Assembly (NCBI GenBank): GCA_044227985.1
Contig: JBGAVT010000002.1
Coordinates: 19,452 to 83,451 of the forward strand
Direction of reading: 5' to 3'
Source: Candidatus Saccharimonadales bacterium
GTDB taxonomy: Bacteria > Patescibacteriota > Saccharimonadia > Saccharimonadales > JAGPDM01
Length of the DNA stretch: 64,000 bases
Shown: in pieces, positions 27,109-46,325 of the stretch
How the letters are laid out: each line of letters begins with the position of its first letter
How positions within the stretch are numbered: the stretch's first letter is position 1
Translations under genes and position numbers: made by a program
Notes under the pieces: generated by a model
What the model was told of the DNA's origin: nothing
Databases searched by the model: none
The model's input: the letters and a program-made list of their open reading frames with translations, nothing else

Positions 27109-27116
27109 TTTTAATA

Positions 27117-27156: not shown

Positions 27157-27165
27157 TCATATATA

Positions 27166-29779: not shown

Positions 29780-29894
29780 TATTGAAAGTATAGCAAGATA
29801 CAACAACTATCAAAATGTAGCACACAAGAAAACACTAGCGACTTGCATGAGTATAGCTGTTATATTTAGGGGAATAAATAATGGAGTGAATGAA

Positions 29895-30660: not shown

Positions 30661-31395
30661 GTGGTGGGAGACAAAAACGAGGTAAAAGTGGATCAAAATC
30701 AGATGCAATTCGGTGTATATAGTAATATGCAGATTCGTGCTGCTATCAAACATAGCCATATTGTTGCCCATCCTTTTAACGATGAACAAGTAAATGGTAG
30801 TAGTTATGACGTGACATTAGGTCACTGGTATTATTCGACCGAGATGGACGGCGACCGTAGTCTCTATAACCCTTTCGACCAAACCGACGTAAACCGCTAC
30901 TTCAGTGGCCCGCATCACTCATCTGCCCATAATCTATGGTGCGCCGAAAATGGACGTTCTCTTATGCCAGGGATTCCTGACGACCACCCAATCATTGTAT
31001 TACGACCTGGGGAACGAATTTTGGCTCACACCCATGAGTTTATTGGAATCAAAGCCCCCGGTACAAGTACTATGCAAGCACGAAGTACTTGGGGTAGAAA
31101 CGGTGTAGCCGTTTGCCTAGATGCCGGATGGGGTGATCCTGGTTACATAAACCGTTGGACAATGGAAATATATAACATGAATAAACGCGATAGCGTAGTA
31201 CTTCCTGTTGGTGAACGAATCGCCCAAGTTGTTTTTTACCACACCGGCCCGGTAGAAGGAGAATATTCCAGTTTGAGCGGAAAATATCAACAAAGCCCAG
31301 AGTCTGACTTATCAGAAATTGTCCGAAACTGGAGACCAGAATCAATGTTGCCACAGGCATTCAAGGACGAACGTAAGAAACCACAAAAGATATAG
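30661..31395 (+). CDS. dcd: dCTP deaminase / dUTPase-superfamily enzyme
   Basis: MQIRAAIKHSHIVAHPFNDEQVNGSSYDVTLG and ARSTWGRNGVAV...DAGWGDPGYINRWTMEIYN...GERIAQVVF match the Dcd blocks. The start (GTG 30661 or ATG 30703) is uncertain. Confidence 0.7.
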   Translation: MVGDKNEVKVDQNQMQFGVYSNMQIRAAIKHSHIVAHPFNDEQVNGSSYDVTLGHWYYSTEMDGDRSLYNPFDQTDVNRYFSGPHHSSAHNLWCAENGRSLMPGIPDDHPIIVLRPGERILAHTHEFIGIKAPGTSTMQARSTWGRNGVAVCLDAGWGDPGYINRWTMEIYNMNKRDSVVLPVGERIAQVVFYHTGPVEGEYSSLSGKYQQSPESDLSEIVRNWRPESMLPQAFKDERKKPQKI

Positions 31396-31404
31396 GAGAC
31401 AACG

Positions 31405-33627
31405 ATGGCAAAGGGCAAATACATTGTAATCGAAGGCGCAGATGGTAGCGGTAAAACTACCATGGCGAGAAATATTCAGGCCTTACTCTTTCAAAAACTA
31501 GGTATCAAAGCAGTTATTCTGCGCGAGCCAGGCAGTACGGAATTTGCCGACAAAATCCGCGAAGTTCTAAAAAGTACGACTAGTCGTAGCCCTGAGGCAA
31601 ACGTCTTAGCTTTTAATGCCGCACGTGCCGACACAATGCGTGAAGTTGCGAAGCATATCGAAAACGGTGGCTGGGTTATTGCTGATCGAAGCTGGATTTC
31701 CACTGTGGTGTATCAAGGTTACGGCGAAGGGCTTGATATCGACAATCTGCGACGAATCAGCCAGTACGCGGCTGCAGCTCAAGCAGACTTGACTGTAGTC
31801 TTAGATGCACCAGTTGATGTTCGACGAGCTCGTAACCACAAACGTGGTGGTAGTGATTATTTCGAGAACCAATCAGATGACTTCCATGAACGAGTGCGTC
31901 AAGGCTATTTGGAGGAAGCTGAATTTCTTGGTTTACCATTAATTAATGCTAACGATAGTGAATCTAGTATCGCTACCCAGCTATGGGGTATGGTTGAAGA
32001 GATTACTGATATTAAAAGTAAAACTAAAAAGACTAAACGTAACCCATTTGTTGAAAAGACAGAACATGGCATGCAGCCGACTGAGCTCGGCAATCAATGG
32101 CTTGGTAATGTGCTGAGTAATCCAAATAAAAATGCCTATGTTTTCAATAACAATCTCAGCCCAATCACCATCGCAGCAGCAATGGCACGACTCAGTCGTC
32201 GTGCCGACGATATGCGAGTAACAATTCTTGACGAATTCAGCCAGATCGAAGGCAAGGACGATTCATTGCTGCGTCGGGTGATTACAGCTTACGGTGATGA
32301 TTCAGTCCAACAATTAACAGGGATCCATGCTGTCGTAGAGAATGCTAGCAACCTTTTGACGAAGAAACTTGAGTGGGGAAGACTGGCTGCCTATCTTGAA
32401 CAATCAACCCGATATATCTATTACGACCGTAAAACACGAGAAGGTAAGTACCGCTATTATACGCCAACAGAGTTCGATGAATCGACCACTAAAATTTATA
32501 ATGAAACGCTTGACCAGATCTTCGATCTTTACTCTATAGTTGTACACGAATTAACAGATTTTATTACAGCTCGAGACGAAACCCCTAAAGAAGAACGAGA
32601 TATCGCCTGGAAGGGGGCGATTCGCGCTCAGGCCTGCGACGTGGCACGAGCGATGCTTCCTGTGGCTACAACATCTACTGTTGGGCTGTATGCAAGTGGG
32701 CAGGCCTATGAAAGCTTAGTCATGCACTTGATGAGTGATGAGCTAGAGGAATCACGTGCAACCGGAGAAGACCTCCTTGAAGCTGGTCGCACCGTAGCAG
32801 CAACATTCCTAGAGCGAGCTGATAAACCAAGTCGTGGTGGAGCAATGCAAGCATATAGAGCCAATACAAGAAATGCCGTCGCAGAAATCACCGAGAAACT
32901 GCTGTCTAATACTGGCTATAGCGACGATAAACGAGACGTGCATTTAGTCAGTACATCCATGCGTAACGAACTGGATGTCGTACCGTATATCCTTTACGAA
33001 GCCTCCGAACTATCACTTGATGAGTTACAAAAAGAAGTAGCCGATTGGAGCTATGATAAAAAACTAGAAGTCTTTAATGCCTACATTGGAGAGAGATTAA
33101 ACCGACGACACAAGCCAGGGCGGGCATTTGAGCATATCGAGTACAACTGGGATTTAATGTGTGACTACGGTATTTTCCGCGATTTACAGCGTCATCGCAT
33201 GGTTGAAGGTCTTCAGTGGCAGAAGCTTACACCACGTTACGGCTATGAAACACCAAAATTAATTGAAGATGCTAACTTAACCGAAGCATACGACCAAGCT
33301 TTTGAGCTGAGCCAGCATCTTTTTAGTCGGCTTCAAGCTTTAGGCTTATATGAACAAGCGCAGTATGCAACGTTAATGGGTCACCGTATGCGGTGGAAAA
33401 TTTCTTTCAATGCTCGTGAAGCTTTTCATTTCATGGAACTACGAACAGCCCCACAAGGCCACCCAGCATATCGAGCACTTGTGAAAACCATGCATGAGCA
33501 GCTTTCAGAAATCCACCCACTGACAGGGGGCGCTATGAAGTTTGTTAATCAAGACGAAGACGCCGCACTAACTCGTCTCGCAGCCGAACGCTACACTCAG
33601 TTTAAGCTCAACCAACTAGGCCAGTGA
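31405..33627 (+). CDS. fusion protein: thymidylate kinase plus tandem ThyX-like (flavin-dependent thymidylate synthase) domains
   Basis: The N-terminal ~200 aa is Tmk (YIVIEGADGSGKTT, VIADRSWISTVVYQG, LID RRARNHKRGG). Two ThyX-like repeats follow. Repeat A has LEWGRLAAYLEQSTRY with the RHR triad lost. Repeat B has FRDLQRHRMVEGLQWQKLTPRY and WKISFNAREAFHFMELRTAPQGH. Confidence 0.8.
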   Translation: MAKGKYIVIEGADGSGKTTMARNIQALLFQKLGIKAVILREPGSTEFADKIREVLKSTTSRSPEANVLAFNAARADTMREVAKHIENGGWVIADRSWISTVVYQGYGEGLDIDNLRRISQYAAAAQADLTVVLDAPVDVRRARNHKRGGSDYFENQSDDFHERVRQGYLEEAEFLGLPLINANDSESSIATQLWGMVEEITDIKSKTKKTKRNPFVEKTEHGMQPTELGNQWLGNVLSNPNKNAYVFNNNLSPITIAAAMARLSRRADDMRVTILDEFSQIEGKDDSLLRRVITAYGDDSVQQLTGIHAVVENASNLLTKKLEWGRLAAYLEQSTRYIYYDRKTREGKYRYYTPTEFDESTTKIYNETLDQIFDLYSIVVHELTDFITARDETPKEERDIAWKGAIRAQACDVARAMLPVATTSTVGLYASGQAYESLVMHLMSDELEESRATGEDLLEAGRTVAATFLERADKPSRGGAMQAYRANTRNAVAEITEKLLSNTGYSDDKRDVHLVSTSMRNELDVVPYILYEASELSLDELQKEVADWSYDKKLEVFNAYIGERLNRRHKPGRAFEHIEYNWDLMCDYGIFRDLQRHRMVEGLQWQKLTPRYGYETPKLIEDANLTEAYDQAFELSQHLFSRLQALGLYEQAQYATLMGHRMRWKISFNAREAFHFMELRTAPQGHPAYRALVKTMHEQLSEIHPLTGGAMKFVNQDEDAALTRLAAERYTQFKLNQLGQ

Positions 33628-34478: not shown

Positions 34479-34507
34479 TTGACAAAAGACGCTCAATAAA
34501 GTATCAT
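34479..34507 (+). promoter_or_regulatory. promoter of the leuA leader
   Basis: TTGACA (34479-34484), 17-nt spacer, TATCAT (34502-34507). The leader-peptide ATG lies 7 nt downstream. Confidence 0.6.
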
Positions 34508-34514
34508 CGGAAAT

Positions 34515-34592
34515 ATGAATTTTTTGAATAAAAGAATTGATCAGCTGCTACTAATCGCGCTTGTGCGTGATGAGCTGGAGCCTGCTTACTAA
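34515..34592 (+). CDS. candidate branched-chain amino acid leader peptide (25 aa)
   Basis: MNFLNKRIDQLLLIALVRDELEPAY has 6 Leu codons, including the run CTG-CTA-CTA followed by Ile-Ala-Leu-Val. Alternative hairpins and a terminator follow it upstream of leuA. Confidence 0.5.
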   Translation: MNFLNKRIDQLLLIALVRDELEPAY

Positions 34593-34622
34593 GCCACGAC
34601 ACAAGCCTAAAATATTAAAAAG

Positions 34623-34651
34623 GGTTCCAGTTTCGGAACCATTTTTAATTT
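34623..34651 (+). terminator. attenuator terminator in the leuA leader
   Basis: GGTTCC-AGTTTC-GGAACC followed by ATTTTTAATTT. It lies about 100 nt upstream of the leuA start. Confidence 0.6.
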
Positions 34652-34743
34652 ACAATATTTTAGGAGAATTTCAATGAGCGACACAGAGAAACAAATGCAA
34701 TTTAGGGCAATTTCACGTATCATTAAGCGTGAACAAATCGTAA

Positions 34744-36321
34744 TTGGAGATGATGGTGCCGTACCGAGAAGCTAATAAAGTTTTAATTTTTGACACGACC
34801 TTGCGTGATGGCGAACAAAGTCCTGGTATTTCTCTGAACAAAACAGAAAAACTAACAATCGCACACGCTCTGGCTGAGCTTGGTGTCGACGTCATCGAAG
34901 CTGGATTTCCAATTGCTAGTATCGGTGATTTTGAAGCCGTTCAAGCAATTGCGCGAGAAGTGCATGGTCCTACTATTTGTGGACTTGCTCGAGCGGTCAA
35001 CGGTGATATCGACCGTGCATGGGAGGCGATCAAAGACGCTGAAAAACCTCGTATCCACACCTTTATTGCAACCAGCAAGGTTCACATGGAGCATAAGCTG
35101 AAGATGACACCGGAAAAAGTCGCGGAAAAGGCCAATGCAGCTGTTGCTCGCGCTAAAAGCTATACTGACGATGTCGAGTTTAGTCCCGAAGACGCTGCTA
35201 GAACAAGCCTAGACGTCATGCTGGCCGTTATACAGGCGGCGGTTGATGCTGGAGCAACAACTATTAACATCCCTGATACTGTTGGTTACACAACACCACA
35301 CGAGTTTGCGGAACGAATTGCTGAGGTTAGGAAAAACATAAAAGGTGATTATATAATTTCCACTCATTGCCATAATGATCTTGGCATGGCGACTGCAAAC
35401 AGCTTGGCTGGAGTAGGTGCTGGTGCCCGGCAAGTAGAAGTGGCGGTCAACGGAATCGGCGAACGGGCAGGTAATGCGGCTTTAGAAGAGATTGTTATGG
35501 CTATTAAGCTGAAGTCGGATAGCTACGGCGGTGTTTATACTGAAGTCGATTCAAAGCTTATCACTCGGACAAGCCGACTTGTCAGTAATCTAACTGGCTA
35601 TCCGGTTCAGTACAACAAAGCGATTGTTGGCCGCAATGCTTTTTCTCATGAGTCGGGTATTCATCAAGATGGAGTTATCAAGAAGCGCGAAACTTACGAG
35701 ATTATAGACCCAGCAGATGTTGGCGCTGGTGAAAGCCAAATTATCCTTGGAAAACACTCTGGCCGTGCGGCAATTTCATCTGCACTAAAAAAATTAGGTC
35801 ACGAGCTAGACAAAAACCAAATGGATGAAGTTTTCATTGATTTCAAAGCCTTAGCTGATCAAAAAAATAATGTGTCTAATGCTGATTTAAGCGCAATTGT
35901 TGACTCCACCGTTCTTCACTTAAACGATACAAACAATCGCTACGAGTTAGAGTCCGCTTCTTTTGCGCTTAATGATGACGAAAAGCCGTCGGCTACTATC
36001 AAAATCAAAACACCTAACGGCGAAACTATCGAACAATCTGCAGTCGGTAACGGCATGGTAGATGCGGTTTGCACCGCTATCCGTGAAGTAGTTGGGCTTA
36101 AGATTGAACTTGTCGAGTATCTCGTCCAGGCAGTAACTGAAAGTATTGATGCACTTGCGTCCGTTAATATACAGCTACGTTCACACGATAAAGTCGCAAC
36201 TGGGCGAGGCAGTGATACTGATGTTGTCCGTGCTTCTGCAAAAGCCTACCTCGACGCGGTAAATCGACTACTCACGATTGATGATGATAGAAATATGAAA
36301 ACGAAGGCTCGGGGACAGTAA
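34744..36321 (+). CDS. leuA: 2-isopropylmalate synthase / citramalate synthase family enzyme
   Basis: IFDTTLRDGEQSPG, HCHNDLGMATANSLAG and a C-terminal LeuA-dimer regulatory domain are present. The likely start is GTG 34756, 6 nt after GGAG, or ATG 34750/34753. Confidence 0.85.
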   Translation: MEMMVPYREANKVLIFDTTLRDGEQSPGISLNKTEKLTIAHALAELGVDVIEAGFPIASIGDFEAVQAIAREVHGPTICGLARAVNGDIDRAWEAIKDAEKPRIHTFIATSKVHMEHKLKMTPEKVAEKANAAVARAKSYTDDVEFSPEDAARTSLDVMLAVIQAAVDAGATTINIPDTVGYTTPHEFAERIAEVRKNIKGDYIISTHCHNDLGMATANSLAGVGAGARQVEVAVNGIGERAGNAALEEIVMAIKLKSDSYGGVYTEVDSKLITRTSRLVSNLTGYPVQYNKAIVGRNAFSHESGIHQDGVIKKRETYEIIDPADVGAGESQIILGKHSGRAAISSALKKLGHELDKNQMDEVFIDFKALADQKNNVSNADLSAIVDSTVLHLNDTNNRYELESASFALNDDEKPSATIKIKTPNGETIEQSAVGNGMVDAVCTAIREVVGLKIELVEYLVQAVTESIDALASVNIQLRSHDKVATGRGSDTDVVRASAKAYLDAVNRLLTIDDDRNMKTKARGQ

Positions 36322-36756
36322 ATGATTCAGGCAATCTACGCTAGCACATCCGGAAATGTTGAGTACGTGATGACGCAGATTGCTAAACTTGAACCACGAG
36401 TGAGCTTGTTACGAGCAGAATATATAGAATCCGGATCTTTTGATAGCGACATATTCATATTTGCAACTTCGACATGGGCTCACGGCGAAGTAAATCCATT
36501 TTTCGTTCCCGTCCTCAAACAAATTGAGAATCTCGATATGACTGGCAAAAAAGCATTTTTTATCGGTCTCGGTGATAATCGTTATGAACCCGTATTGTTC
36601 TGTGAGGCTATCAATATTACCCGTAGAGCCTTCGATGCTTCGGGCGGCCAATCACTCGGGAAAACATTTAGACTCAATGGTGATCCGTATACTCAGGAAG
36701 ATAAAGTCGAAGACTGGGTAAAGAATATGTTGCAAAAGGAGCTTATAAATGCGTAA
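36322..36756 (+). CDS. flavodoxin
   Basis: 144 aa. IYASTSGNVEYVM matches the FMN phosphate-binding loop pattern (S/T-x-T-G-N-T/V-E). The gene starts 1 nt after the leuA stop. Confidence 0.7.
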   Translation: MIQAIYASTSGNVEYVMTQIAKLEPRVSLLRAEYIESGSFDSDIFIFATSTWAHGEVNPFFVPVLKQIENLDMTGKKAFFIGLGDNRYEPVLFCEAINITRRAFDASGGQSLGKTFRLNGDPYTQEDKVEDWVKNMLQKELINA

Positions 36757-38482
36757 AGATCGTCTGCGTATAAAGTTTGCCGGTGAGAGCGGTCAGGGGA
36801 TCGACTCAGTCGGTAAAGCTATCACTGAAGCCTTGGTTTGGGCCGGGTATTACACCTTTGGTTACCGTGAGTATCCAAGTCTAATTAAGGGTGCTTGGGC
36901 CAATTATCAAGTAGATGTTTCAGATCAACCGCTACAGTCAAGCTCTGAAAAATGCGACATTCTGCTATGTATCAGTCGTTATAGTATTTATGAATATTTG
37001 CCAACGCTTGCCGACGGAGGTCAGCTAATTCACAGTATGGAAAGGTTAGAGCTACCTGACGAGCTACAAGATTTTGTCAGCGATCACAACATCACTATTG
37101 AATATGTAAAAGCGATTGAGATTGCCGAAGCTCAGGGCGGCAATGCATTGATGGAGAACGTTGTTTTGGTCGGCGTACTCTGGCAGTTACTGGGAATACG
37201 ACTTGAACCGTTTCAAAATGAGCTCAAAAAGCTATTTGCTAAAAAACCAGATTTACTAGAACTTGACCTTAAATGCGCCGAAGCTGGCTATGTTTATAAA
37301 ACACAACACGCGAAAAAAATTGATTTCACGACTATGTTTAAATCAAATATGAAACTTATTAAGAACCAAGTAATCGACGGTAACTACGCAATCAGTAAAG
37401 GTGCGGTCGATGCCAGCGTCAGGGCTTTTTATGCTTATCCGATGACGCCAAGCTCATCCGTACTGACTTATCTGGCTGACTGGCAATTTGAAACCAAGAT
37501 GGTCGTGAAGCAGATAGAAGATGAAATATCGGCTGCCCAATTTACGATTGGTAGTAGTTTTATGGGAACCCGAGCCATGACCGCAACGAGTGGTGGAGGC
37601 TTTGATCTCATGACGGAAAGTGTTAGTTTGGCTGGAATAACCGAAACTCCACTCGTCATATTTTTGTCACAACGACCCGGGCCTGGCACCGGGCTTCCAA
37701 CTTGGACAATGGCAAGTGATTTGCCAATAGCGGTCTACGGCGGACATGGTGAATTTGCCCGAATCGTTGTGGCGGCAAGCGATCCGAAAACTGCTTATCG
37801 CGTTACACAGGAGGCTCATAACCTAGCGGAAATGTATCGAGTGCCAGTGATAATCTTGTCAGAAAAACAGATAGCCGAATCGCTTTATAATATTGATAGT
37901 TTAGGTGAAAAAGTACCTATTAAACGTCAATTAACAGATACACCAATCATTCCAGAATCAGCGAGTGATTTCTACAATGAACACGAAACAGGTGTCAGCA
38001 CACGATGGTTCCCGGGTGATAACTTACCAGTTTTTCTCTCTAATAGTGATGAGCACGACGGTGAAGGAAATTCAATTGAAGATGGTCCAACCACAAAGCT
38101 TCAATATGGTAAGCGTATAGCAAAACAAAAATTAATTGAGGACGCTTTGCCGCTACCAAAAATTTATGGCAATAAAGAATCTAAAAACTACATAATCGGC
38201 TGGGGGAGTACGGCAAATACTGTGCTTGATTTAATCGATAACTATGAGAACCTAGCTTACGTACATTTCGAATATCTTTGGCCGTTGAATGCAGCTAAAA
38301 TTGCTGAGCTGCTAGATAATAAGACCTTGTTTAGCGTTGAAAACAACTACACCTCCCAATTAGCAACGTTGCTGAAGTCTCAGCTACCGCTCGAATTCGC
38401 GAAGCAGTTTACAAAGTATGATGGTCGCGGATTTTTCGTTGAAGATATGGAAGCAATCTTAGACGAGGTGAATCAATCATGA
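36749..38482 (+). CDS. 2-oxoacid:ferredoxin/flavodoxin oxidoreductase, fused gamma-alpha subunit
   Basis: The N-terminal gamma-like segment reads IKFAGESGQGIDSVGKAI. The alpha domain reads AVDASVRAFYAYPMTPSSSVL...ATSGGGFDLM. It overlaps both neighbours, consistent with an operon. Confidence 0.8.
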   Translation: MRKDRLRIKFAGESGQGIDSVGKAITEALVWAGYYTFGYREYPSLIKGAWANYQVDVSDQPLQSSSEKCDILLCISRYSIYEYLPTLADGGQLIHSMERLELPDELQDFVSDHNITIEYVKAIEIAEAQGGNALMENVVLVGVLWQLLGIRLEPFQNELKKLFAKKPDLLELDLKCAEAGYVYKTQHAKKIDFTTMFKSNMKLIKNQVIDGNYAISKGAVDASVRAFYAYPMTPSSSVLTYLADWQFETKMVVKQIEDEISAAQFTIGSSFMGTRAMTATSGGGFDLMTESVSLAGITETPLVIFLSQRPGPGTGLPTWTMASDLPIAVYGGHGEFARIVVAASDPKTAYRVTQEAHNLAEMYRVPVIILSEKQIAESLYNIDSLGEKVPIKRQLTDTPIIPESASDFYNEHETGVSTRWFPGDNLPVFLSNSDEHDGEGNSIEDGPTTKLQYGKRIAKQKLIEDALPLPKIYGNKESKNYIIGWGSTANTVLDLIDNYENLAYVHFEYLWPLNAAKIAELLDNKTLFSVENNYTSQLATLLKSQLPLEFAKQFTKYDGRGFFVEDMEAILDEVNQS

Positions 38483-39354
38483 GTTGTGGAAGCTGCCCAT
38501 CACTAGAGGATTGCGATCCAGGAACGCGAGCAAGTTTTGCTAGTAAAAATCTCTATACTTGGTGTACAAACTGCGGAAATTATGGAATTTTCGGAGCAGT
38601 CAAAAATGCTTTAACACAGGAGAATAAAAAACCACATGAAGTTTTATTAGCTTTTGATATTGGTTGCAACAGCAACGGTGCTGATAAGATTTCTGGCTAC
38701 CGCTTCAAAGGACTCCACGGACGAGTGATACCATTTGCCTGCGGCGCTAGTATTGCTAATCAAGACGTTCCAGTGCTTGCGTTTGCTGGCGATGGAGCCA
38801 CGCTCGGCGAGGGCATTAGCCACTTTGTTCACGCCGTACGCACTAACTACAATGTCACTTTTATCTTACATAACAATTATAACTACGGCTTAACAACTGG
38901 GCAGGCCAGTCCAGCTACACCAGACGGCATACCTATGAAAGTGTCTCCCTATGGAACGACTGCCGAGCAGCTCAATGTATCGCAGCTCGTCATGTCTCTT
39001 AAGCCAAGCTTTTATGCTCGTAGCTATTCGGGCCACGTTGGGCACATGACAAATGTGATTCGTAAAGGCATGCAACATAAGGGGTTTTCGGTCGTTGAAG
39101 TCATGCAGGCCTGTCCAACCTTTAATAAGGCCACGCCACACATGTGGTATATGGAACGAGCTTTTGATATCAGCGACATTAAAGATTACGATAAAACTGA
39201 TCTTGAACAAGCTAGACGAGTAGCCAATGACTTAACAGACAAAATTGCCATTGGCGTTTTATATCAACGCGAAGATATGCCTGATTTCATGGCTAAACAA
39301 CAACAACGCAAGAACGAAACCACTAACCTATCCTCAGAAGTATCAATTAACTAA
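38479..39354 (+). CDS. 2-oxoacid:ferredoxin/flavodoxin oxidoreductase, beta (TPP-binding) subunit
   Basis: WCTNCGNYGIF, the TPP motif AFAGDGATLGEG...LHNNYNYGLTTGQ and a further conserved Cys are present. Confidence 0.8.
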   Translation: MSCGSCPSLEDCDPGTRASFASKNLYTWCTNCGNYGIFGAVKNALTQENKKPHEVLLAFDIGCNSNGADKISGYRFKGLHGRVIPFACGASIANQDVPVLAFAGDGATLGEGISHFVHAVRTNYNVTFILHNNYNYGLTTGQASPATPDGIPMKVSPYGTTAEQLNVSQLVMSLKPSFYARSYSGHVGHMTNVIRKGMQHKGFSVVEVMQACPTFNKATPHMWYMERAFDISDIKDYDKTDLEQARRVANDLTDKIAIGVLYQREDMPDFMAKQQQRKNETTNLSSEVSIN

Positions 39355-39822
39355 GTTTTTTGATGGCATTATCTGCACCCTAGTCTCATCAGTTCGCGGG
39401 TGCACGATCGTTGGACTATTCCCACCCCAAACACCGCCCCATTTAGTGTCGCCAGGAATAAAGTTAGGACAAGTCCAGCAGTTACCAGGAACATCGGAAT
39501 CAGGACTTTTCATCTCTGTTGATGCTCCACGCGCCCAAGCACTATAATCATTTTCATCGTGGAAATGTCTCGTTAGTTTAAAATAGAAAGTCCCTAGTGT
39601 GACTAGCTGCGGCGGTATTGCTTCGTCGCTTGATGTAAAAACTTCAGCCAACTTACTTGGTTTTACATGTCTTGGCAATGCAATGTCGTTGCCTATTGCT
39701 TCTAGGACGGGTCCCCAAGTTTCGCTTCCACAATCATCCGGAGGCAGAAACTCTCCACTACACTGTGGCGGAACGTGGATAGTAGGCATTGACATTCTTA
39801 GTTTATCGCCGAAATTTGACAT
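39343..39822 (-). CDS. hypothetical Trp/Gly/Cys-containing protein, locally G+C-rich gene
   Basis: 159 aa with no recognised motif (features: PPQCSGEF, NCWTCPNF, WGGVWGG). A hand count of 39361-39480 gives about 52% G+C, against about 40% in typical neighbouring coding sequence. Confidence 0.45.
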   Translation of the reverse strand: MSNFGDKLRMSMPTIHVPPQCSGEFLPPDDCGSETWGPVLEAIGNDIALPRHVKPSKLAEVFTSSDEAIPPQLVTLGTFYFKLTRHFHDENDYSAWARGASTEMKSPDSDVPGNCWTCPNFIPGDTKWGGVWGGNSPTIVHPRTDETRVQIMPSKNLVN

Positions 39823-39892
39823 AATTATCTATTACTATAACCTAAAACTATTGTTAATCAATATATGTTAGAGTAATAGTCAAAGGAGAGAT

Positions 39893-40252
39893 ATGAACAA
39901 ACCAGCAGCTAAGTATTCACCAATTCGAAAAGTCGGTAATGCCTATTATATCTCCGGACAAGTAGCATTTAAGCCAGATACACTTGAGCTAATTAGCGAT
40001 GATATAAAGGAACAGATCGTTCAAGTCATGAAAAATATTAAGAATTTGCTAGAAAACAAAGGCTTATCAATGGGGGATCTCGTAAAAACTACCGTTCTTC
40101 TTGACGATATCGATAACTATGCTGTTATGAATGAAGTTTATGCTGAATTTATTGTCGGCGATACCCCACCTGCGAGGGCAGCTTATGCAGTCAAAGCACT
40201 GCCGTTTGGCGCTAAAATTGAAATTGAAGCTATTGCCTATAAAGAATCGTAA
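39893..40252 (+). CDS. ridA: RidA (YjgF/L-PSP) reactive enamine/imine deaminase
   Basis: 119 aa. YSPIRKVGNAYYISGQVA...MGDLVKTTVLLDDIDNYAVMNEVYAEF...PARAAYAVKALPFGAKIEIEAIA is typical of the family. Confidence 0.85.
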   Translation: MNKPAAKYSPIRKVGNAYYISGQVAFKPDTLELISDDIKEQIVQVMKNIKNLLENKGLSMGDLVKTTVLLDDIDNYAVMNEVYAEFIVGDTPPARAAYAVKALPFGAKIEIEAIAYKES

Positions 40253-40312
40253 TTCTTTTTCATAGCTTAAATACGTGCGAAAAATCTGTAGACCGAGTAT
40301 AATCCCTAATTT

Positions 40313-41797
40313 GTGGACCCTATAGTAAGCCAAATCAATAACAGCCTAGTTTACGACGTCAGCAAAGTAACTGCGCTAGATCATGCCAAGAAACTTTCCG
40401 ATAAACTGAATAATGCAATATATTTTAAACGCGAAGACCTGCAGCCGGTAAAATCGTTCAAAATTCGTGGCGCCTACAACCGAATTGCTCAGCTCAGTGA
40501 TAATGAAAAGAAAGCTGGAGTCATAGCTGCTAGCGCTGGAAACCATGCCCAAGGAGTAGCTTTAAGCGCACAAAAACTTGGAATAGAAGCGACAATCATT
40601 ATGCCGACGACGACACCTCAAATCAAAATCGATGCGGTTCGTTCATATGGTGCAGAGGTAGTACTTTTCGGTGATAGTTACAGCGATGCTGGTGACTATG
40701 CAAAAGAATTACAAAAGAATCGCGACATGATCTATGTTCATCCTTTTAACGATCTCGAAGTTATTGCTGGACAAGGAACTATTGGTAAAGAAATTGTCGA
40801 ACAGCTGACTCAAGTTGATTATATTTTTGTTCCAGTTGGCGGCGGCGGATTATTAGCTGGGATTGCAAGCTATGTCAAAAACATAAAACCAAACTGCAAC
40901 ATTATTGGTGTCGAACCAATCGATAGTAATGTAATGAATCGTTCGCTTAAAGAAGGTAAAATCGCCGAACTGAAAAGTGTTGGAATTTTTGCGGATGGTG
41001 TTGCGGTTAAAGTTCCAGGAGATAATACATACGAATTGTGCTCTAAATATGTAGATGAAATGATGACTGTTTCCACCGATGAAATATGTGCAGCAATAAA
41101 AAATATCTATGAAGATAGTCGCTCAATTGTCGAACCTGCAGGTGCACTAGCTATGGCTGGCGCTACACGATTTATAGAAAAAAACTCTCTCAAAAATAAA
41201 AATATCGTTGTTATTAATAGTGGTGCGAATATGACTTTTGAGCGTTTGCAGTTTATTGCCGAGCGAACTCTAGTTGGCAGCGGCAAAGAAGTTCTGTACA
41301 GCATAGAATTAGCAGAAAAGCCTGGTGCGCTTCGAGGTTTAGTCGAGAATGTAGTTAACGGCTATTCGATAAGTGAGTTTAATTATCGCAAACAAGATAT
41401 CAAAAAAGCGCATATTTTTGTTGGTATGCTCTTGGTTGAGCCAGAAGATAAACTAAGATTAGAAACCTCTCTCAATAAATATAACTATAAATTCAAAGAT
41501 TTAACTAGTAATGAGATCAGTAAACGACATTTACGCCATATGATAGGCGGCAAAGCACCAAAAGGAACAAACGAAGCCTTATTCGAATTTGTCTTCCCTG
41601 AGCGACCCGGGGCATTACATGAGTTTTTAATAGCAATTGAAGATCGTTATAATGTCAGCCTTTTTCACTACCGTAACAACGGGGGTGACAACGCGCGAGT
41701 CATGATCGGGCTTGAAGGCCATAGCATAAAACTTGATTTACCAGATGGGTTCGAAAAACATACTATCGCTCATAATACTTTTGCTGATTTCATCTAG
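40313..41797 (+). CDS. ilvA: threonine dehydratase (biosynthetic type with C-terminal regulatory domains)
   Basis: PLP lysine block QPVKSFKIRGAYN, GNHAQGVAL, VPVGGGGLLAGI, and about 170 aa of tandem ACT-like C-terminal domains. GTG start. Confidence 0.85.
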   Translation: MDPIVSQINNSLVYDVSKVTALDHAKKLSDKLNNAIYFKREDLQPVKSFKIRGAYNRIAQLSDNEKKAGVIAASAGNHAQGVALSAQKLGIEATIIMPTTTPQIKIDAVRSYGAEVVLFGDSYSDAGDYAKELQKNRDMIYVHPFNDLEVIAGQGTIGKEIVEQLTQVDYIFVPVGGGGLLAGIASYVKNIKPNCNIIGVEPIDSNVMNRSLKEGKIAELKSVGIFADGVAVKVPGDNTYELCSKYVDEMMTVSTDEICAAIKNIYEDSRSIVEPAGALAMAGATRFIEKNSLKNKNIVVINSGANMTFERLQFIAERTLVGSGKEVLYSIELAEKPGALRGLVENVVNGYSISEFNYRKQDIKKAHIFVGMLLVEPEDKLRLETSLNKYNYKFKDLTSNEISKRHLRHMIGGKAPKGTNEALFEFVFPERPGALHEFLIAIEDRYNVSLFHYRNNGGDNARVMIGLEGHSIKLDLPDGFEKHTIAHNTFADFI

Positions 41798-41800: not shown

Positions 41801-41829
41801 TTGACAAATACTATAATTTGAACTATAAT
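41801..41829 (+). promoter_or_regulatory. consensus promoter, probable leaderless transcript
   Basis: TTGACA (41801-41806), 17-nt spacer, TATAAT (41824-41829). The ATG at 41836 lies 6 nt downstream with no SD. Confidence 0.55.
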
Positions 41830-41835
41830 ATATTT

Positions 41836-42639
41836 ATGTCTTTCAGAGAACGCGCACAAGTTCAACCAGCTTCGCAATTCGACCATATTGTCCATTGGGT
41901 AAGACAAGGACCTAAAGTTAGACCAGATGGTACCTACAATCATGGAATATTATTTCCTGTCACAGCCAATACAAAGCTTCGGCCAGCAGTAGCTCAGAGT
42001 AAAGACGATGAAGGTAAGTTACGTTCTGTAGAGCGCAGTGATATAAGCCCAGAAGAGTATGACTTCCTTAGGAAGACAAGTATACACGGATTAGTAAGAG
42101 CGATGGGAGCAGTTAAACAACGAGCCTGGGCTACAATGCCTGTTCGCAACATATACCTTGGTGTTGAAGGTAATTTTGTATCTCTACAAAAAGGGAACCC
42201 AACTATAGTAAAAATTAAAGAATTTGAAGAAGGATATTCTAGTAAAGTTAGAACTGTAACAGTCGCTAGCAGCAGAGGGTTCAACAAAGACGGAACTCCT
42301 CAACCTTATATGCCTCAAGCTAAATTTTCTACATACTGGGGGGAGGGTGATCCGAACGGAAAAAATACAACCATTCGAGCAAACCCGATACTGACAAAAA
42401 ATTTTCACAACATACCTATTCCGGATATAACTATCGATTTAGCAAGAAATAAACATGTTAAATCGAAAAGAGACGAGACCGCACCTGACATTTCGATTGC
42501 TGAAGCATTTGGCATACAGTCTTCAAGCTTAGATGCCGATTATGCACCACAGAATGAAGTATTACAAAGGATGCTACTTGGTGTAGCCGCAGCCGCAGTA
42601 ATAAAACTAGCAATTGAAATGCCATATGATGGAGAATAG
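41836..42639 (+). CDS. hypothetical protein (267 aa)
   Basis: No motif recognised. There is a hydrophobic C-terminal segment (MLLGVAAAAVIKLAI). It is the last cargo gene before rplJ. Confidence 0.45.
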   Translation: MSFRERAQVQPASQFDHIVHWVRQGPKVRPDGTYNHGILFPVTANTKLRPAVAQSKDDEGKLRSVERSDISPEEYDFLRKTSIHGLVRAMGAVKQRAWATMPVRNIYLGVEGNFVSLQKGNPTIVKIKEFEEGYSSKVRTVTVASSRGFNKDGTPQPYMPQAKFSTYWGEGDPNGKNTTIRANPILTKNFHNIPIPDITIDLARNKHVKSKRDETAPDISIAEAFGIQSSSLDADYAPQNEVLQRMLLGVAAAAVIKLAIEMPYDGE

Positions 42640-42675
42640 CCATCAGTTGACGCGTATTCGATAATAAGCTATTAT

Positions 42676-42813
42676 TGTCTTAGTTTTGCCAAAGACAGTA
42701 GCAGCAGAAATGCTTAATTCGCTACCGAGGACGAACGAACAGTCACTGTTTGTTTTGTGATAACACACATCGTTTTAGTCTTTGGTGAACAAAAGCCAAA
42801 GACTTTTTGTTTT
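42676..42813 (+). promoter_or_regulatory. candidate rplJ (L10) leader with alternative structures and intrinsic terminator
   Basis: Terminator AGTCTTTGG (42777-42785) / CCAAAGACT (42796-42804) followed by TTTTGTTTT, 37 nt before the rplJ ATG. An upstream copy of CCAAAGAC (42689-42696) can pair with the terminator's left arm, and is itself sequestered by the hairpin TGTCTT (42676-42681) / AAGACA (42692-42697). Confidence 0.55.
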
Positions 42814-42850
42814 AGCTAAAAATAATTAATAAGGTGAAAGGAAATAATCA

Positions 42851-43381
42851 ATGGCGATTACTCGAAAGAAAAAGGAAGAAATCATTTCTGGCGTAGCCGA
42901 TATTTTGGCGCAGTCAAAGATGACCGTCGTCGCAAACTACTCTGGTTTGACCGTTGCAGAAATGCAAACACTTCGACGTGCAGCACGAGCAGAAAATGTC
43001 GTTATCAAAGTTGCAAAAAACCGACTCGTTAAGCGAGCATTTGCAGCTGACAATAAGTTAAAAGACGTTGACAGCTCCATGCTAAAAGGTCAGTTAGCAG
43101 TTGCAGTAGGTCTAGATGACGAAGTTGCTCCAGCCCAAGTTTTGGCGCAATTTGCTAAAGAACATCCACAGCTCGAGCTAATTGGCGGCGTTAACGCTGA
43201 CGGTGAAGCTTTTGACGGTGCTCAGGTCAAGCAATTGAGCGAGCTACCAAGCAAAGACGTACTACGCGGCCAAGTTGTTGGAACGATTGCAGCACCACTC
43301 AGTGGTTTTGTTTCTGTTCTAGCTGGCAACATTCGCGGCTTTAACAACGTGCTTAACGCACGAAAAGACGCAATTTCATAA
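42851..43381 (+). CDS. rplJ: 50S ribosomal protein L10
   Basis: KKEEIISGVADILAQSKMTVVANYSGLTVAEMQTLRRAARAENVVIKVAKNRL is a typical L10 sequence. Confidence 0.92.
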   Translation: MAITRKKKEEIISGVADILAQSKMTVVANYSGLTVAEMQTLRRAARAENVVIKVAKNRLVKRAFAADNKLKDVDSSMLKGQLAVAVGLDDEVAPAQVLAQFAKEHPQLELIGGVNADGEAFDGAQVKQLSELPSKDVLRGQVVGTIAAPLSGFVSVLAGNIRGFNNVLNARKDAIS

Positions 43382-43425: not shown

Positions 43426-43845
43426 ATGGCTGACGAAGCACCTAAGACAGAAGACAAAAAAGAAATCCCTAAGAAGTTTGCAAAACTAGTGAAAGAAATT
43501 GAAGAACTTTCAGTTCTTGATCTTTCTGAGCTCGTGAGTGTGCTTGAAGATCACTTCGGCGTAAGTGCTGCTGCACCTGCAATGGCAATGGTCGCAGGTC
43601 CAGCTGGTGATGCTGCCGCTGATGAAGATGAACAAACTGAGTTTGACGTTATCCTCAAAGATGCTGGAAGTCAAAAAGTTGCAGTGATCAAGGCTGTTAA
43701 AGAACTAACAGGTCTTGGTCTCGGCGAAGCTAAAGCTATGGTCGAAGGCGCACCTAAGACTGTAAAAGAAAAGCAGAACAAAGATGATGCTGCTGAAGCT
43801 AAAAAAGCTCTAGAAGCTGCTGGCGCAACTGTCGAGCTAGCTTAG
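43426..43845 (+). CDS. rplL: 50S ribosomal protein L7/L12
   Basis: The N-terminal dimerisation helix is followed by an Ala/Pro hinge. The C-terminal domain reads [43 protein letters not shown]. Confidence 0.95.
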
Positions 43846-43868
43846 TTCATCAGTTTTATAATCTCAAA

Positions 43869-43904
43869 ATAGACTCTTTCATAATGAAAGGGTCTATTTT
43901 TTTT
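43869..43904 (+). terminator. rho-independent terminator after rplL
   Basis: 13-bp stem (one C-G... G-U-type imperfection) ATAGACTCTTTCA / TGAAAGGGTCTAT followed by TTTTTTT. Confidence 0.8.
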
Positions 43905-44169
43905 GGGTTGATGGCCTCGAGCAACATAATTATTCTGGGAGCTCCAAGACTTTCTAGATTGAAGAGGCACCAGAATCGTAAATCTTGTGTTTTCTAGAAG
44001 TATTTACCAGGATCAACGCTCTCATCTAATAAATACGAACGCATTGATTTATTATAGCTATATACTTGTTCGGCACTAATTGGGTCTGGCATCGATGATT
44101 TATCTACGACCTCATCATGAGTAATTTAGTCTAAGCATATATAAACTATAGTAAGGAATAATAAACTTG

Positions 44170-44679
44170 TTACAAAGCAGCTTCGATGGCTGCCCATTCG
44201 GCTTCTGGATCTTCTTCAGGCACAACAACGCTAACCTGATCACCAAGCTCGAGCTTGAAGTACGTCACACTAGCCAGCAGTACACTATAGTTGGTACTAC
44301 CAACTTCGACATAGAACTGTCCTTCTTTTTGCTTGAGAACACCGACAAGTGTTTTGCGTGGAACAGGTCCAATTTGCTTGTAGAGAAATGAGCCATCATC
44401 TTGGATGGTTAGCTTCAAGACGTCACCTTGGACGAGTTTAGACTTTGAAGCGTAATTAGCTGGCACGGGGTAGTTCTTGCCATCAGGTCCGAGCATACTT
44501 CTACCTTCGAATACACCTTCTAATACCTTACCTCTAACTTCTTGAGGTTTAACACCATCAAATTGATCATCTTCTCCGACCAAACTGATTAATAGTTCTT
44601 TTGCCGCGGCAAGACTTGTTTCAGCCTCGTCTATTAACGATCGCAGGCGCTTTATTTGCTTATCTGCTAATTCTGCCAT
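44170..44679 (-). CDS. hypothetical protein (coiled-coil N-terminus plus two beta-rich segments)
   Basis: 169 aa, acidic. Contains NYPVPANYASKSKLVQGDVLKL and YFKLELGDQVSVVVPE. No family recognised. Confidence 0.5.
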   Translation of the reverse strand: MAELADKQIKRLRSLIDEAETSLAAAKELLISLVGEDDQFDGVKPQEVRGKVLEGVFEGRSMLGPDGKNYPVPANYASKSKLVQGDVLKLTIQDDGSFLYKQIGPVPRKTLVGVLKQKEGQFYVEVGSTNYSVLLASVTYFKLELGDQVSVVVPEEDPEAEWAAIEAAL

Positions 44680-44832
44680 GTCACATACCTAGTTCTTTGT
44701 TTTATTAGTAATAACTAATGAACTCTAGCAGTCTTCAAGACTTTTGTCAATTTGCGCAATATTTAAGTAGAAGCGTCTCAAGCGAAAAGCTATGGAACTT
44801 GCTATACTAGCGTACAAGAAGAGGAGTATCTA

Positions 44833-46323
44833 ATGGCGCTTTATCAGAAGTACCGTTCAAAAAATTTGGACACTATAATCGGGCAACAACATATCACCGA
44901 CGTCTTAAAAGCCGCTATTAAACGACAGCAAGTTTCTCATGCTTATCTTTTTACTGGCCCGCGAGGAGTCGGCAAAACTAGTATTGCTCGAATTGTTGCA
45001 CACGAGATAAATGGACTAAAGTACTCTGGGAATGCACCTGAGGATATCGACATAATAGAAATTGACGCTGCTAGTCATGGTAGCGTTGACGATATTCGTG
45101 ATATGCGAGAAAAGGCATATATAACTCCAGCAATTTCAAAATATAAAGTTTATATCATCGATGAAGTTCACATGCTTAGTTCTGCGGCATTTAATGCTCT
45201 ACTTAAAATTATCGAAGAGCCACCTGAGCATTTAGTATTTATACTCGCTACCACAGAGGCTCATAAAGTTCCGGATACAATTATCTCAAGAACACAGCGC
45301 TTTTCATTTCGTGAGATTCCAGTTTCATTATTAAAATCTCATATTCTTGAAATTGCCAAGAAAGAGAGCATTTCAATTGATGATGAGGCTGCTGAGCTAC
45401 TAGCAGAGCGAGCTCGTGGTAGTGCTAGAGATGCTTTGTCGGTCTTTGAACAAGTTGCTGATAGCGGAGAAAAGGTTGACGCTAATAATGTTTTACAGAC
45501 ACTCGGACTAGCCAGTAAACAATTGCTGGGGCAACTAACTAAAAATATACTCAGTGGAGATGTGGCAGCAGCGTTATCTATCTATAATCAAGCAATCACT
45601 CAAGGCGCGCAAGCTGAGCTATTAGCTGAGCAAATTGCGCGCTACTGGCTCAATCATAATATCGCAGCCAAGCAGGATAGAATCTCTCTTGAGATAATCA
45701 AAGCTGTTCTTGAAGCAAGTAATTCAGCTAATACAGAACTATTATTAGAAGTTTTGTTAGTTCAGGCAGCTCAGCAGTTCAACGGAACGACGGAAAAAAT
45801 AGTCAAGAATATTGAAATCGAAAAGGTGCAATCTAAAAAAGAAACAAAACACCTTACAGCTGAGATCTCAATACAAGAAAAATCAGAGATATCTCCACCA
45901 GTTCCCAAGCCTGAGGAAGTAGCTAAACCTCGGCCAGCCGAGAACAAAGCTGCTATTGCGCCAGATAAACCAAAAGAAACGATCAAAACTAGTCTAGTCG
46001 ACAAGAATCTTTGGATTAAGATTATCGGGGTTGTTAAAAAGAACTACAAACCACTTAGCGCGGTCTTGGGTTTGGCAGAGTTTGAATATGATAAAAAAGA
46101 AAATCTCGTTAAGCTTGGTTTTAGCTATTCATTTAATCGCCGGCAAGTAGAGAGCAGTTCTAACCAACAAAAATTACTAGATATTTTGCGTAGTGAAATC
46201 GACAGTGACGTACGATTAGAGATTATTGAAATAGACAAGGCTTTGCCTGAAGCTCCTTTAATTCAAGATAAGGTTCTTGATATGCTTGGTGGTGAGCCGA
46301 TGCAACTAGAGGCTAGAGTTTAG
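44833..46323 (+). CDS. dnaX: DNA polymerase III gamma/tau subunit
   Basis: YRSKNLDTIIGQQHI, FTGPRGVGKTSIARI, YIIDEVHMLS, NALLKIIEEPP and the SRTQRF sensor block are present. Confidence 0.92.
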   Translation: MALYQKYRSKNLDTIIGQQHITDVLKAAIKRQQVSHAYLFTGPRGVGKTSIARIVAHEINGLKYSGNAPEDIDIIEIDAASHGSVDDIRDMREKAYITPAISKYKVYIIDEVHMLSSAAFNALLKIIEEPPEHLVFILATTEAHKVPDTIISRTQRFSFREIPVSLLKSHILEIAKKESISIDDEAAELLAERARGSARDALSVFEQVADSGEKVDANNVLQTLGLASKQLLGQLTKNILSGDVAAALSIYNQAITQGAQAELLAEQIARYWLNHNIAAKQDRISLEIIKAVLEASNSANTELLLEVLLVQAAQQFNGTTEKIVKNIEIEKVQSKKETKHLTAEISIQEKSEISPPVPKPEEVAKPRPAENKAAIAPDKPKETIKTSLVDKNLWIKIIGVVKKNYKPLSAVLGLAEFEYDKKENLVKLGFSYSFNRRQVESSSNQQKLLDILRSEIDSDVRLEIIEIDKALPEAPLIQDKVLDMLGGEPMQLEARV

Positions 46324-46325
46324 TT

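Follow-up and report, generated by a model that had tools for sequence, protein, structure and literature searches.

The leu leader of enterobacteria and the leuA leaders of actinobacteria are built alike: Leu codons are clustered in a short leader open reading frame (ORF), the sensor codons fall within a hairpin, and an antiterminator, whose upstream arm is near the leader stop, has one strand in common with a Rho-independent terminator. Saccharibacteria and other bacteria of the Candidate Phyla Radiation (CPR, or Patescibacteria) are commonly portrayed as lacking the ability to synthesize amino acids. Here, we analyze a 64,000-nucleotide stretch (the window) of a Candidatus Saccharimonadales bacterium (contig JBGAVT010000002.1, positions 19,452 to 83,451), in which a predicted leucine attenuator precedes genes for 2-isopropylmalate synthase (leuA), a flavodoxin (fld), a two-subunit 2-oxoacid:acceptor oxidoreductase (OFOR), an enamine/imine deaminase (ridA), and threonine ammonia-lyase (ilvA). 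With a probability of roughly 0.55, we read the locus as a leucine-controlled biosynthetic operon of a Saccharibacterium, not a catabolic island, in which the OFOR most likely supplies acetyl-CoA to LeuA. Biosynthesis is favored because the control appears to respond to leucine starvation, leuA is in the lead, LeuA and IlvA are of allosteric types, and these genes keep biosynthetic company in relatives.

The control region was overlooked when the locus was first delimited at 34744-41797; the real unit begins further upstream, with the promoter and leader at 34479-34651. Promoter, leader ORF, the first hairpin (P1), and terminator all lie within 490 bp upstream of leuA, and a second small upstream ORF (uORF2) follows them.

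34479..34507, plus strand: sigma-70-like promoter, TTGACA-17 nt-TATCAT, score 11/12
34515..34592, plus strand: leader ORF of 25 codons, MNFLNKRIDQLLLIALVRDELEPAY, core QLLLIALV, by ORF reading
34553..34651, plus strand: attenuator RNA, by folds and covariation
34559-34569 and 34595-34606, plus strand: arms of the P1 hairpin, by RNA fold
34575-34582 (CTGGAGCC) and 34623-34630 (GGTTCCAG), plus strand: antiterminator arms, by fold and covariation
34623-34640, plus strand: terminator stem, GGTTCC/GGAACC and then ATTTTT, with the T-run at 34642-34646, by terminator scan and fold
34674..34775, plus strand: uORF2, 33 codons, MSDTEKQMQFRAISRIIKREQIVIGDDGAVPRS, a called gene with a strong AGGAG Shine-Dalgarno sequence that overlaps the leuA start codon

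Taken together, the region 34479-34651 is predicted to be a leader-peptide attenuator of the classical leucine type, with the Leu, Ile, and Val codons clustered in the leader ORF (LLLIALV) as its sensor. Because the -10 box ends 7 nt ahead of the leader AUG, the leader ORF is probably translated from a leaderless mRNA. The upstream antiterminator arm begins 15 nt before the leader stop codon, a distance of 3-16 nt in the four closest lineages. Moreover, the downstream arm, GGTTCCAG, doubles as the terminator's left arm and loop, so the antiterminator and the terminator exclude each other. Equilibrium folds from which the ribosome-covered part was removed still favor the terminator, and the argument for the antiterminator is therefore kinetic and comparative rather than thermodynamic.

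That the attenuator is real is argued by conservation above the neutral level, by retention of the peptide pattern, and by covariation of the arms. Related loci used in the comparisons are labeled L007, L011, L012, and so on. Between the Leu codons and the start of leuA, L007 and L011 match the window at 91% and 88% of nucleotides, whereas third codon positions of leuA match at only 58% and 39%; synonymous distance (dS) in these lineages is about 1-2.7, near saturation. The core of the leader peptide, including the Leu run, is kept while the N terminus drifts (L007, QLLLLALVRDELEPAY; L011, QLLLIALVREELEPAY; L012, QLNLLALAALCVRG), and the leader ORFs of L013 and L096 differ by synonymous changes. 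In L012, both antiterminator arms have been rewritten, GGTTGAAGTCT with AGACTTCAACC standing in place of the CTGGAGCC and GGTTCCAG of the window. When 11 lineages were aligned, 98.9% of the cells of the antiterminator helix were paired and four of its eight pairs had changed on both sides; none of 500 shuffles reached the observed covariation, and slid controls gave 16-51%. Covariation was counted formally for the antiterminator helix only, because in MAFFT alignments the other arms did not line up from one subgroup to another; for P1 and the terminator the evidence is the folding of individual sequences, by which terminator hairpins occur at the same place in relatives with different sequence. 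Finally, Rfam searches of the window at gathering thresholds and of the leader region at E values up to 1 returned only the L10 leader, tRNAs, and one chance match, and thus the attenuator does not belong to a described family.

Compared with the known leucine leaders, the element differs in its host, a Saccharibacterium, and in a leader ORF that is apparently leaderless. It also differs in the second conserved micro-ORF over the leuA start and in belonging to a family, without an Rfam model, in which sensor codons are swapped across several ilv and leu genes. We found no report of leader-peptide attenuators in Saccharibacteria or other CPR bacteria in the literature, only a paper with a passing mention of leuA, and searches for Saccharibacteria together with isopropylmalate synthase, leuA, ilvC, acetolactate synthase, or branched-chain biosynthesis gave nothing specific. 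The micro-ORF, uORF2, is conserved as an Ile-rich peptide (EKQMQFRAISRIIKREQIVIG) in L007, L011, and L012 and is absent from L013-type relatives. Its peptide is kept by synonymous and codon-family changes, such as Ser AGC against TCA in L012. RNA structure within uORF2 was not significant (z between -0.9 and +0.7); z-scores this near zero speak against structure as the cause of the conservation, which acts at the level of the peptide. The micro-ORF is probably translationally coupled to leuA, and it may couple or gate leuA translation.

The attenuator recurs upstream of other branched-chain genes with its parts in a fixed order: promoter, leader ORF, P1, antiterminator, terminator, and then TTTTTAATTT and AGGAG. 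The sensor codon run appears to track the gene behind the leader.

Leu run: LeuA-type genes (six), in the window, L007, L011, L012, L099, and L162
LLSIVVISIL: ilvB-ilvN-ridA-ilvA, in L107
QLIIIS: 558-aa LeuA-like protein, a candidate citramalate synthase, in L112
SIIIIP: short IlvA-like protein, in L135
ILLLGL.LL (mixed run): ilvC-ilvD-leuB-ilvA, in L101

For 24 of 33 family leaders, a promoter scoring at least 9/12 is present whose -10 box ends 5-12 nt (mostly 7-8 nt) upstream of the start codon, compared with 2% of control ATGs. This spacing indicates that the leader ORFs of the family are probably leaderless.

Behind the control region lie the genes of the unit, between rplA and rplJ as the preliminary description had placed them (rplK and rplA, 26671-28191, with rplA at 27166-28191; rplJ, 42851-43381, preceded by the Rfam L10 leader at 42671-42818). 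The genes that it named are all present, with profile scores far beyond chance, although the start of leuA at TTG 34744 is probably wrong.

34750/34753-36321, plus strand: leuA, 2-isopropylmalate synthase of the bacterial short form, by Pfam and NCBIfam profile match
36322-36756, plus strand: fld, short-chain flavodoxin and presumed redox partner of the OFOR, Pfam Flavodoxin_1, 2.8e-12
36749-38482, plus strand: OFOR gamma-alpha fusion (domains III, I, II), TIGR03710 at 495 bits, cut-off 483
38479-39354, plus strand: OFOR beta, TPP_enzyme_C and PFO_beta_C
39355-39892, no strand: population-specific 538-bp insertion between OFOR-beta and ridA
39343-39822, minus strand: antisense "orphan" ORF of 159 codons, inside the insertion region
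39893-40252, plus strand: ridA, enamine/imine deaminase, TIGR00004
40313-41797, plus strand: ilvA, biosynthetic-type threonine ammonia-lyase, TIGR01124 at 657.7 bits, cut-off 411.3, last gene of the unit

The first four genes are packed as tightly as described: fld begins directly after the leuA stop, the overlap of fld with OFOR-alpha is 8 nt, and that of OFOR-alpha with OFOR-beta is 4 nt in the ORF listing. The interval between rplA and rplJ also holds genes for an inositol monophosphatase, dihydrofolate reductase (DHFR), dCTP deaminase, a tmk-thyX fusion, and an isochorismatase. The contig turns up in several metagenomes, and six metagenome contigs carry the reading frames intact. OFOR-alpha is 92% identical to an NCBI protein labeled "Candidatus Saccharibacteria bacterium"; further relatives, at 46-49% identity, carry the names Dojkabacteria, Curtissbacteria, Pacebacteria, and Microgenomates.

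With the tmk-thyX fusion as anchor, we fetched 80 Saccharibacterial loci and annotated them with a protein panel. L101 carries ilvC-ilvD-leuB-ilvA and a convergent leuD-leuC, all six above NCBIfam cut-offs. L107-L109 carry ilvB(-ilvN-ridA-ilvA), L109 ending within ilvB. Relatives of IlvA add further variants: in L099, ilvE (above its NCBIfam cut-off) and a gene for a short LeuA stand with ridA and ilvA, and L100, of unconfirmed phylum, has ridA, ilvB, ilvN, and ilvA; the ilvB and ilvN genes of L100 and L107 were identified by Pfam domains and similarity. Among relatives of LeuA, L011 and L012 keep leuA-fld(-OFOR), and L013, L096, and L097 have only leuA-ridA ahead of rplJ. Since relatives carry ilvC-ilvD-leuB-ilvA with leuCD, ilvBN-ridA-ilvA, and ilvE-leuA-ridA-ilvA between tmk-thyX and rplJ, this interval is the group's place for branched-chain genes, and most of the branched-chain gene sets found there sit behind a member of the attenuator family. 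Retention of ilvC, ilvD, leuB, leuCD, ilvBN, and ilvE at the same locus in relatives indicates that the island is one variant of a biosynthetic cluster. With the canonical clusters of L101, L107, and L099 the window shares orthologous ilvA and ridA, the interval, and the attenuator family; unlike them, it lacks ilvC, ilvD, leuB, leuCD, ilvBN, and ilvE and has gained fld-OFOR between leuA and ridA.

LeuA passes both NCBIfam models for the enzyme (NF002086, 727.2 bits against a cut-off of 532; TIGR00973, 671.4 against 598.7). It has the catalytic TIM barrel (HMGL-like, residues 13-280) and the accessory subdomain (HCS_D2, 294-374) and keeps the C-terminal leucine-binding regulatory domain (LeuA_dimer, 377-510), and the catalytic motifs TLRDGEQ and HCHNDLG do not vary among the aligned sequences. 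Scores against citramalate synthase and NifV models are far below the cut-offs, and the best solved relative is the Neisseria meningitidis isopropylmalate synthase 3RMJ (418 bits). A preference for 2-oxoisovalerate and inhibition by leucine are predicted, for which the Leu-run leader is indirect support. Relatives of LeuA at 77%, 69%, and 62% identity are all Saccharibacterial and in the same neighborhood, and at 61%, outside the clade, stands a genome with leuCD, leuB, and ilvE beside leuA. The closest non-CPR relatives (an Acidimicrobiales genome and L094) also have Leu-run small ORFs upstream, and thus regulation of this kind is old and known. A LeuA scan of GTDB genomes, saturated by universal LeuA motifs, returned no Saccharibacterium among the best 80 matches, and its best match was from Acidimicrobiales, at 57%. 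Transfer of leuA from an actinobacterial host, as the Acidimicrobiia among the top matches might suggest, is kept as a lead only, as 57-59% identity is common to many phyla.

In nitrogen fixers, NifV, NifF, and NifJ are homocitrate synthase, flavodoxin, and pyruvate:flavodoxin oxidoreductase, and the same three families stand together here. We rejected this analogy. LeuA passes the LeuA equivalogs, scores 324 bits against the NifV cut-off of 463, and keeps the leucine regulatory domain; the OFOR has two subunits and is not NifJ; and no nif genes are present.

What the OFOR acts upon can be narrowed by comparison with solved enzymes. OFOR-alpha carries POR and POR_N domains, OFOR-beta has the thiamine pyrophosphate site and one [4Fe-4S] cluster, and no 4Fe-4S ferredoxin domain was found in the OFOR with Pfam. 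The two best solved relatives are enzymes of Sulfolobus tokodaii, the better of them the broad-specificity StOFOR1 (PDB 5B48). Like StOFOR1, the window OFOR is an alpha-beta enzyme in which gamma is fused to alpha, with one [4Fe-4S] cluster and without a ferredoxin domain. Of the four cluster cysteines of StOFOR1 (5B48_B), three align (C-x2-C and GC), the fourth falling in a segment not aligned by eye. In StOFOR1, the Thr of YPITP and Arg344a bind the carboxylate, and Ser41a, Thr349a, Asp468a, and Leu123b form the pocket; the K49bI substitution abolishes activity on 2-oxoglutarate and leaves activity on pyruvate (PMC5020499). The window OFOR shares the Thr (YPxTP) and all of these residues or their equivalents: in OFOR-alpha Ser41a, Arg344a (here Arg309), Thr349a, and Asp468a, and in OFOR-beta Leu123b. 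It differs in being bacterial, in reading YPMTP rather than YPITP, and in replacing Lys49b by Asn66 in a shortened loop.

The preliminary description had named firm clustering of the OFOR with 2-oxoglutarate enzymes as a finding that would speak against it, and no such clustering was seen. StOFOR1 is closest, a Magnetococcus 2-oxoglutarate:acceptor oxidoreductase scores below it, and a four-subunit 2-oxoglutarate synthase scores much lower. Loss of Lys49b, together with failure to reach the 2-oxoglutarate equivalog models (alpha, 138 against the NF007206 cut-off of 579; beta, 122 against the NF007207 cut-off of 364), indicates that the OFOR cannot firmly be classed with the 2-oxoglutarate enzymes; its substrate could plausibly be pyruvate or 2-oxobutyrate. 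In the window, the OFOR is coupled to a flavodoxin gene, whereas StOFOR1 uses a dicluster ferredoxin. The flavodoxin matches Pfam Flavodoxin_1, lies below NCBIfam cut-offs, has the STSGN phosphate loop, and adjoins the OFOR also in L010 and L012. The fld-OFOR trio stands alone in L010, a relative at 56%, which marks it as a separate module inserted between leuA and ridA. The order leuA-fld-OFOR, with genes abutting or overlapping, is kept between lineages whose LeuA proteins are only 69% identical, and the insertion of fld-OFOR predates the split of the window lineage from L012.

The last two genes of the unit are ridA and ilvA. IlvA has a PALP domain and two Thr_dehydrat_C stretches and scores 315 against the TdcB cut-off of 453, so the regulated threonine dehydratase of the preliminary description holds, as a TIGR01124-type enzyme with two C-terminal regulatory domains. 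RidA, whose gene adjoins ilvA or leuA in L013, L099, L100, L107, and L181, is predicted to quench the reactive products of IlvA. Between OFOR-beta and ridA the gap is 30 nt in the relative at 92%, which is without the 538-bp insertion. No copy of the insertion was found elsewhere, and the orphan ORF within it is frameshifted in a natural metagenome variant, L005. The orphan ORF, which has its own promoter-like site, and the gene after ilvA have no family match and no obvious transporter character.

We propose the following mechanism. Transcription would start at about 34514, and the 25-codon Leu/Ile/Val-rich ORF, at or beside the 5' end, would be translated first. When charged tRNA-Leu is plentiful, the ribosome would reach the stop codon and cover the upstream antiterminator arm, the terminator at 34623-34646 would form, and transcription would halt. 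When leucine is scarce, the ribosome would stall on the Leu run, open P1, and free the antiterminator arm for pairing with the terminator's left arm. Read-through would then reach uORF2, leuA, fld, OFOR-alpha, and OFOR-beta and, ancestrally, also ridA and ilvA. The presence of the attenuator at the head of the operon would account for leuA being its first gene. LeuA would condense 2-oxoisovalerate with acetyl-CoA, which the co-translated flavodoxin-OFOR pair would most likely make from pyruvate, with the electrons passing to flavodoxin and CoA cycling between OFOR and LeuA. IlvA and RidA would make 2-oxobutyrate for isoleucine. The locus would thus be a lineage-specific version of the branched-chain cluster, with fld-OFOR inserted. 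Gene identities, purifying selection, comparative synteny, and the build of the attenuator with its covariation are shown by the data, whereas we infer that attenuation works in vivo as drawn and which direction and substrate the OFOR has; leuCD, leuB, ilvE, and a source of 2-oxoisovalerate presumably lie elsewhere in the genome.

Several observations weigh against a leucine-controlled biosynthetic operon. The absence of leuBCD and ilvBHCDE from the window, as first described, stands: Pfam, applied to 47 of the larger window ORFs, found no leuBCD or ilvBNCDE in the 64 kb, and tblastn with Saccharibacterial IlvC, IlvD, LeuB, LeuC, LeuD, IlvB, and IlvE found neither matches nor remnants. As leuCD, leuB, ilvBN, ilvC, ilvD, and ilvE are missing from the 64 kb and the flanks examined, the pathway is incomplete as far as visible. 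Most of the 80 loci have tmk-thyX directly followed by rplJ. Among 58 complete tmk-thyX-rplJ intervals, 20 keep the attenuator with an intact Ile/Leu/Val-rich leader and no recognizable branched-chain gene, and therefore the attenuator alone is no proof of biosynthesis; with 20 lineages keeping the element by itself, the family could be a more general sensor of branched-chain starvation for nonbiosynthetic genes. L098 (ilvA-pdxS-pdxT, 10001-13007) and L181 (ilvA-pdxST and then IscS-NifU-ridA, 10001-15320) keep ilvA, and L181 also ridA, with no other ilv or leu gene and no remnants found of ilvC, ilvD, leuB, leuCD, ilvB, or ilvE, which suggests that IlvA can act outside isoleucine synthesis. 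In this strain, ridA-ilvA may have been cut off from leucine-controlled transcription by the 538-bp insertion. Finally, the role of the OFOR as supplier of acetyl-CoA is deduced from operon logic and pocket residues.

Four other explanations have to be set against the biosynthetic operon. The preliminary description saw an energy module that takes threonine to 2-oxobutyrate and propionyl-CoA, or the reverse, and in the catabolic form of this idea IlvA and RidA would deaminate threonine or serine and the OFOR would oxidize 2-oxobutyrate or pyruvate to propionyl- or acetyl-CoA, with flavodoxin as acceptor and LeuA as a passenger. The OFOR, ridA, and ilvA genes are adjacent, 30 nt separating OFOR from ridA in the relative at 92%; the OFOR pocket resembles that of StOFOR1, which turns over 2-oxobutyrate; L098 and L181 retain ilvA without other ilv or leu genes; and a preprint has the threonine dehydratase of Saccharimonadia feeding central carbon metabolism. 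An operon turned on by leucine shortage, however, makes no sense for burning threonine, and leuA leads it, abuts fld, and is under strong purifying selection. Moreover, IlvA is of the feedback-regulated biosynthetic type and not TdcB-like, and in other lineages ilvA shares operons with ilvC-ilvD-leuB or ilvBN. No phosphotransacylase, acyl kinase (Pta, Ack, TdcD), or ADP-forming acyl-CoA synthetase (Acd) was found among the 47 ORFs scanned, and thus the module would have no visible ATP-yielding acyl enzyme. A precedent for such a module exists in E. coli, where the tdcABCDEFG cluster combines a threonine dehydratase, the RidA-family protein TdcF, and an enzyme that cleaves 2-oxobutyrate to propionyl-CoA. 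The window differs from tdc in its biosynthetic IlvA, in an OFOR in place of the pyruvate formate-lyase-like TdcE, in the lack of a propionate kinase among the ORFs scanned, and in being leuA-led under leucine attenuation. With the leucine attenuator, the biosynthetic IlvA, the lack of such acyl enzymes among the ORFs scanned, and the ilv and leu genes of relatives all pointing elsewhere, the catabolic module is not the best fit, and we consider it unlikely.

If leuBCD and ilvBNCD are instead genuinely missing from the genome, the epibiont could keep LeuA and IlvA, together with an OFOR that makes acetyl-CoA, and hand 2-isopropylmalate and 2-oxobutyrate to a host that finishes leucine and isoleucine. 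Such a split pathway would fit the lack of any other pathway gene or remnant in 64 kb and the identity of the retained enzymes, which are exactly the allosteric, committed ones and are under strong selection. Saccharibacteria are described as auxotrophic epibionts in the literature, and fragmented pathways are known to persist in symbionts (PMC4306246). The 64 kb seen, however, are probably a small part of the genome, one relative (L101) has ilvC, ilvD, leuB, and leuCD, the island contains no transporter gene, and transfer of 2-isopropylmalate between bacteria has no known precedent. Separation of leuA from leuBCD is, moreover, common in bacteria. We therefore regard a split pathway as distinctly unlikely. 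The OFOR might also run as a synthase, with reduced flavodoxin driving the carboxylation of isobutyryl-CoA or propionyl-CoA, from scavenged short-chain acids, to 2-oxoisovalerate or 2-oxobutyrate in place of ilvBNCD, and would thereby provide substrate for LeuA and for the isoleucine branch. A low-potential carrier is encoded in an operon under leucine control, ilvBNCD are absent from the locus though relatives have them there, and rumen anaerobes reductively carboxylate branched short-chain acids to amino acid precursors. Still, the same fld-OFOR module occurs without leuA in another CPR genome (L010), no acyl-CoA-forming enzyme and no flavodoxin-reducing system were seen, and leuCD and leuB would be required all the same; relatives come largely from soils, rhizospheres, and lakes by contig names, which is weak evidence. 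Reductive synthesis by the OFOR is thus very improbable. Least probable, to the point of being almost certainly wrong, is that the genes are decaying leftovers of a lost pathway with no present function. The locus is highly dynamic, with such genes gone from most lineages, and an insertion has split the operon. Decay is nonetheless excluded by ratios of nonsynonymous to synonymous substitution (dN/dS), relative to the 92% relative, of 0.045 for leuA, 0.025 for fld, 0.047 for OFOR-alpha, 0.021 for OFOR-beta, and 0.034 for ilvA (with ridA at 0.15). These values of 0.02-0.05 are in the range of ribosomal proteins (0.06-0.07), at a synonymous distance near saturation. The intact reading frames in six metagenome contigs and conservation of the leader above the coding level speak the same way.

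Leucine attenuators, LeuA, IlvA, RidA, and two-subunit OFORs are all already known. What is new is the combination of LeuA, IlvA, RidA, and a two-subunit OFOR in one operon under predicted leucine control, a putative family of leader-peptide attenuators, in a CPR phylum, whose sensor codons are interchangeable, and a mosaic locus that records stepwise gain and loss of branched-chain genes. Some environmental Saccharibacteria retain genuine branched-chain genes at the tmk-thyX|rplJ hotspot. The OFOR in a leucine operon points to a dedicated supply of acetyl-CoA for LeuA, in an organism that probably lacks pyruvate dehydrogenase. As gene content at this one locus differs among relatives, successive steps of pathway loss in an epibiont lineage can be followed, and the variants allow a direct test of whether hosts complete partial pathways. 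If the split pathway were true, two bacteria would share branched-chain synthesis, and the parasite would command its control points and make its part on its own demand under a leucine-starvation attenuator.

The wider attenuator family offers some observations of its own. Attenuators without branched-chain genes occur at about 20 loci, for example at L111:12658-12803 and 13076-13221, L160:3631-3774, L176:12433-12566, and L175:12395-12533. Their leaders end in ..GLCFtMVEAs.., and the ORFs behind them are 60-110 aa long, mutually unrelated, and without a Pfam match. Either these elements are left over from operons since lost, or they switch other genes in response to branched-chain starvation. 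A Leu-rich leader, ILLLGLILLRPARIGA, is still found upstream of the ilvA of L181 and L098, and L181 groups pyridoxal phosphate-dependent enzymes with a RidA that protects them from 2-aminoacrylate. The LeuA-like protein at L112:6702-8475 (558 aa) lies below all LeuA and CimA cut-offs and behind an Ile-run leader (..EIILCIV..QLIIIS..), which suggests a candidate isoleucine-regulated citramalate synthase.

Downstream of ilvA, a perfect TTGACA-17-TATAAT promoter (41801-41829) ends 6 nt before the ATG at 41836 of the next, unrelated gene. Promoter and gene together span 41801-42639 and end shortly before the L10 leader; the encoded protein (267 aa) matches no family and carries a hydrophobic C-terminal tail. 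A positional counterpart in the relative at 92% shows no obvious similarity to it; the gene looks fast-evolving and is probably leaderless. On the other side of the unit, the tmk-thyX fusion (31405-33627, 740 aa) is preceded by dCTP deaminase (30661-31395), and DHFR is encoded on the minus strand (about 29285-29780). The fusion with its preceding dCTP deaminase is kept in all 80 Saccharibacterial loci fetched, often with DHFR or a deoxynucleoside kinase nearby. Together, tmk-thyX, dCTP deaminase, and DHFR form a thymidylate mini-island within the rplKA|rplJL cluster. Ribosomal protein L1 (27166-28191) is 341 aa long, its L1 domain starting only at residue 144; an N-terminal extension, about 140 aa in the window, is found in most relatives too (L1 of about 300-365 aa). 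At 43426-47678, rplJ-rplL are followed by a small opposite-strand ORF, dnaX, and dnaB instead of by rpoB-rpoC as in most bacteria, and the order rplJ-rplL-dnaX-dnaB is kept across the surveyed Saccharibacterial loci. Finally, a chorismate-binding enzyme, PabB/TrpE-like, is encoded at 61026-62102 on the minus strand, about 30 kb from the DHFR gene, and the two genes hint that some folate-related biosynthesis is retained in a small genome.

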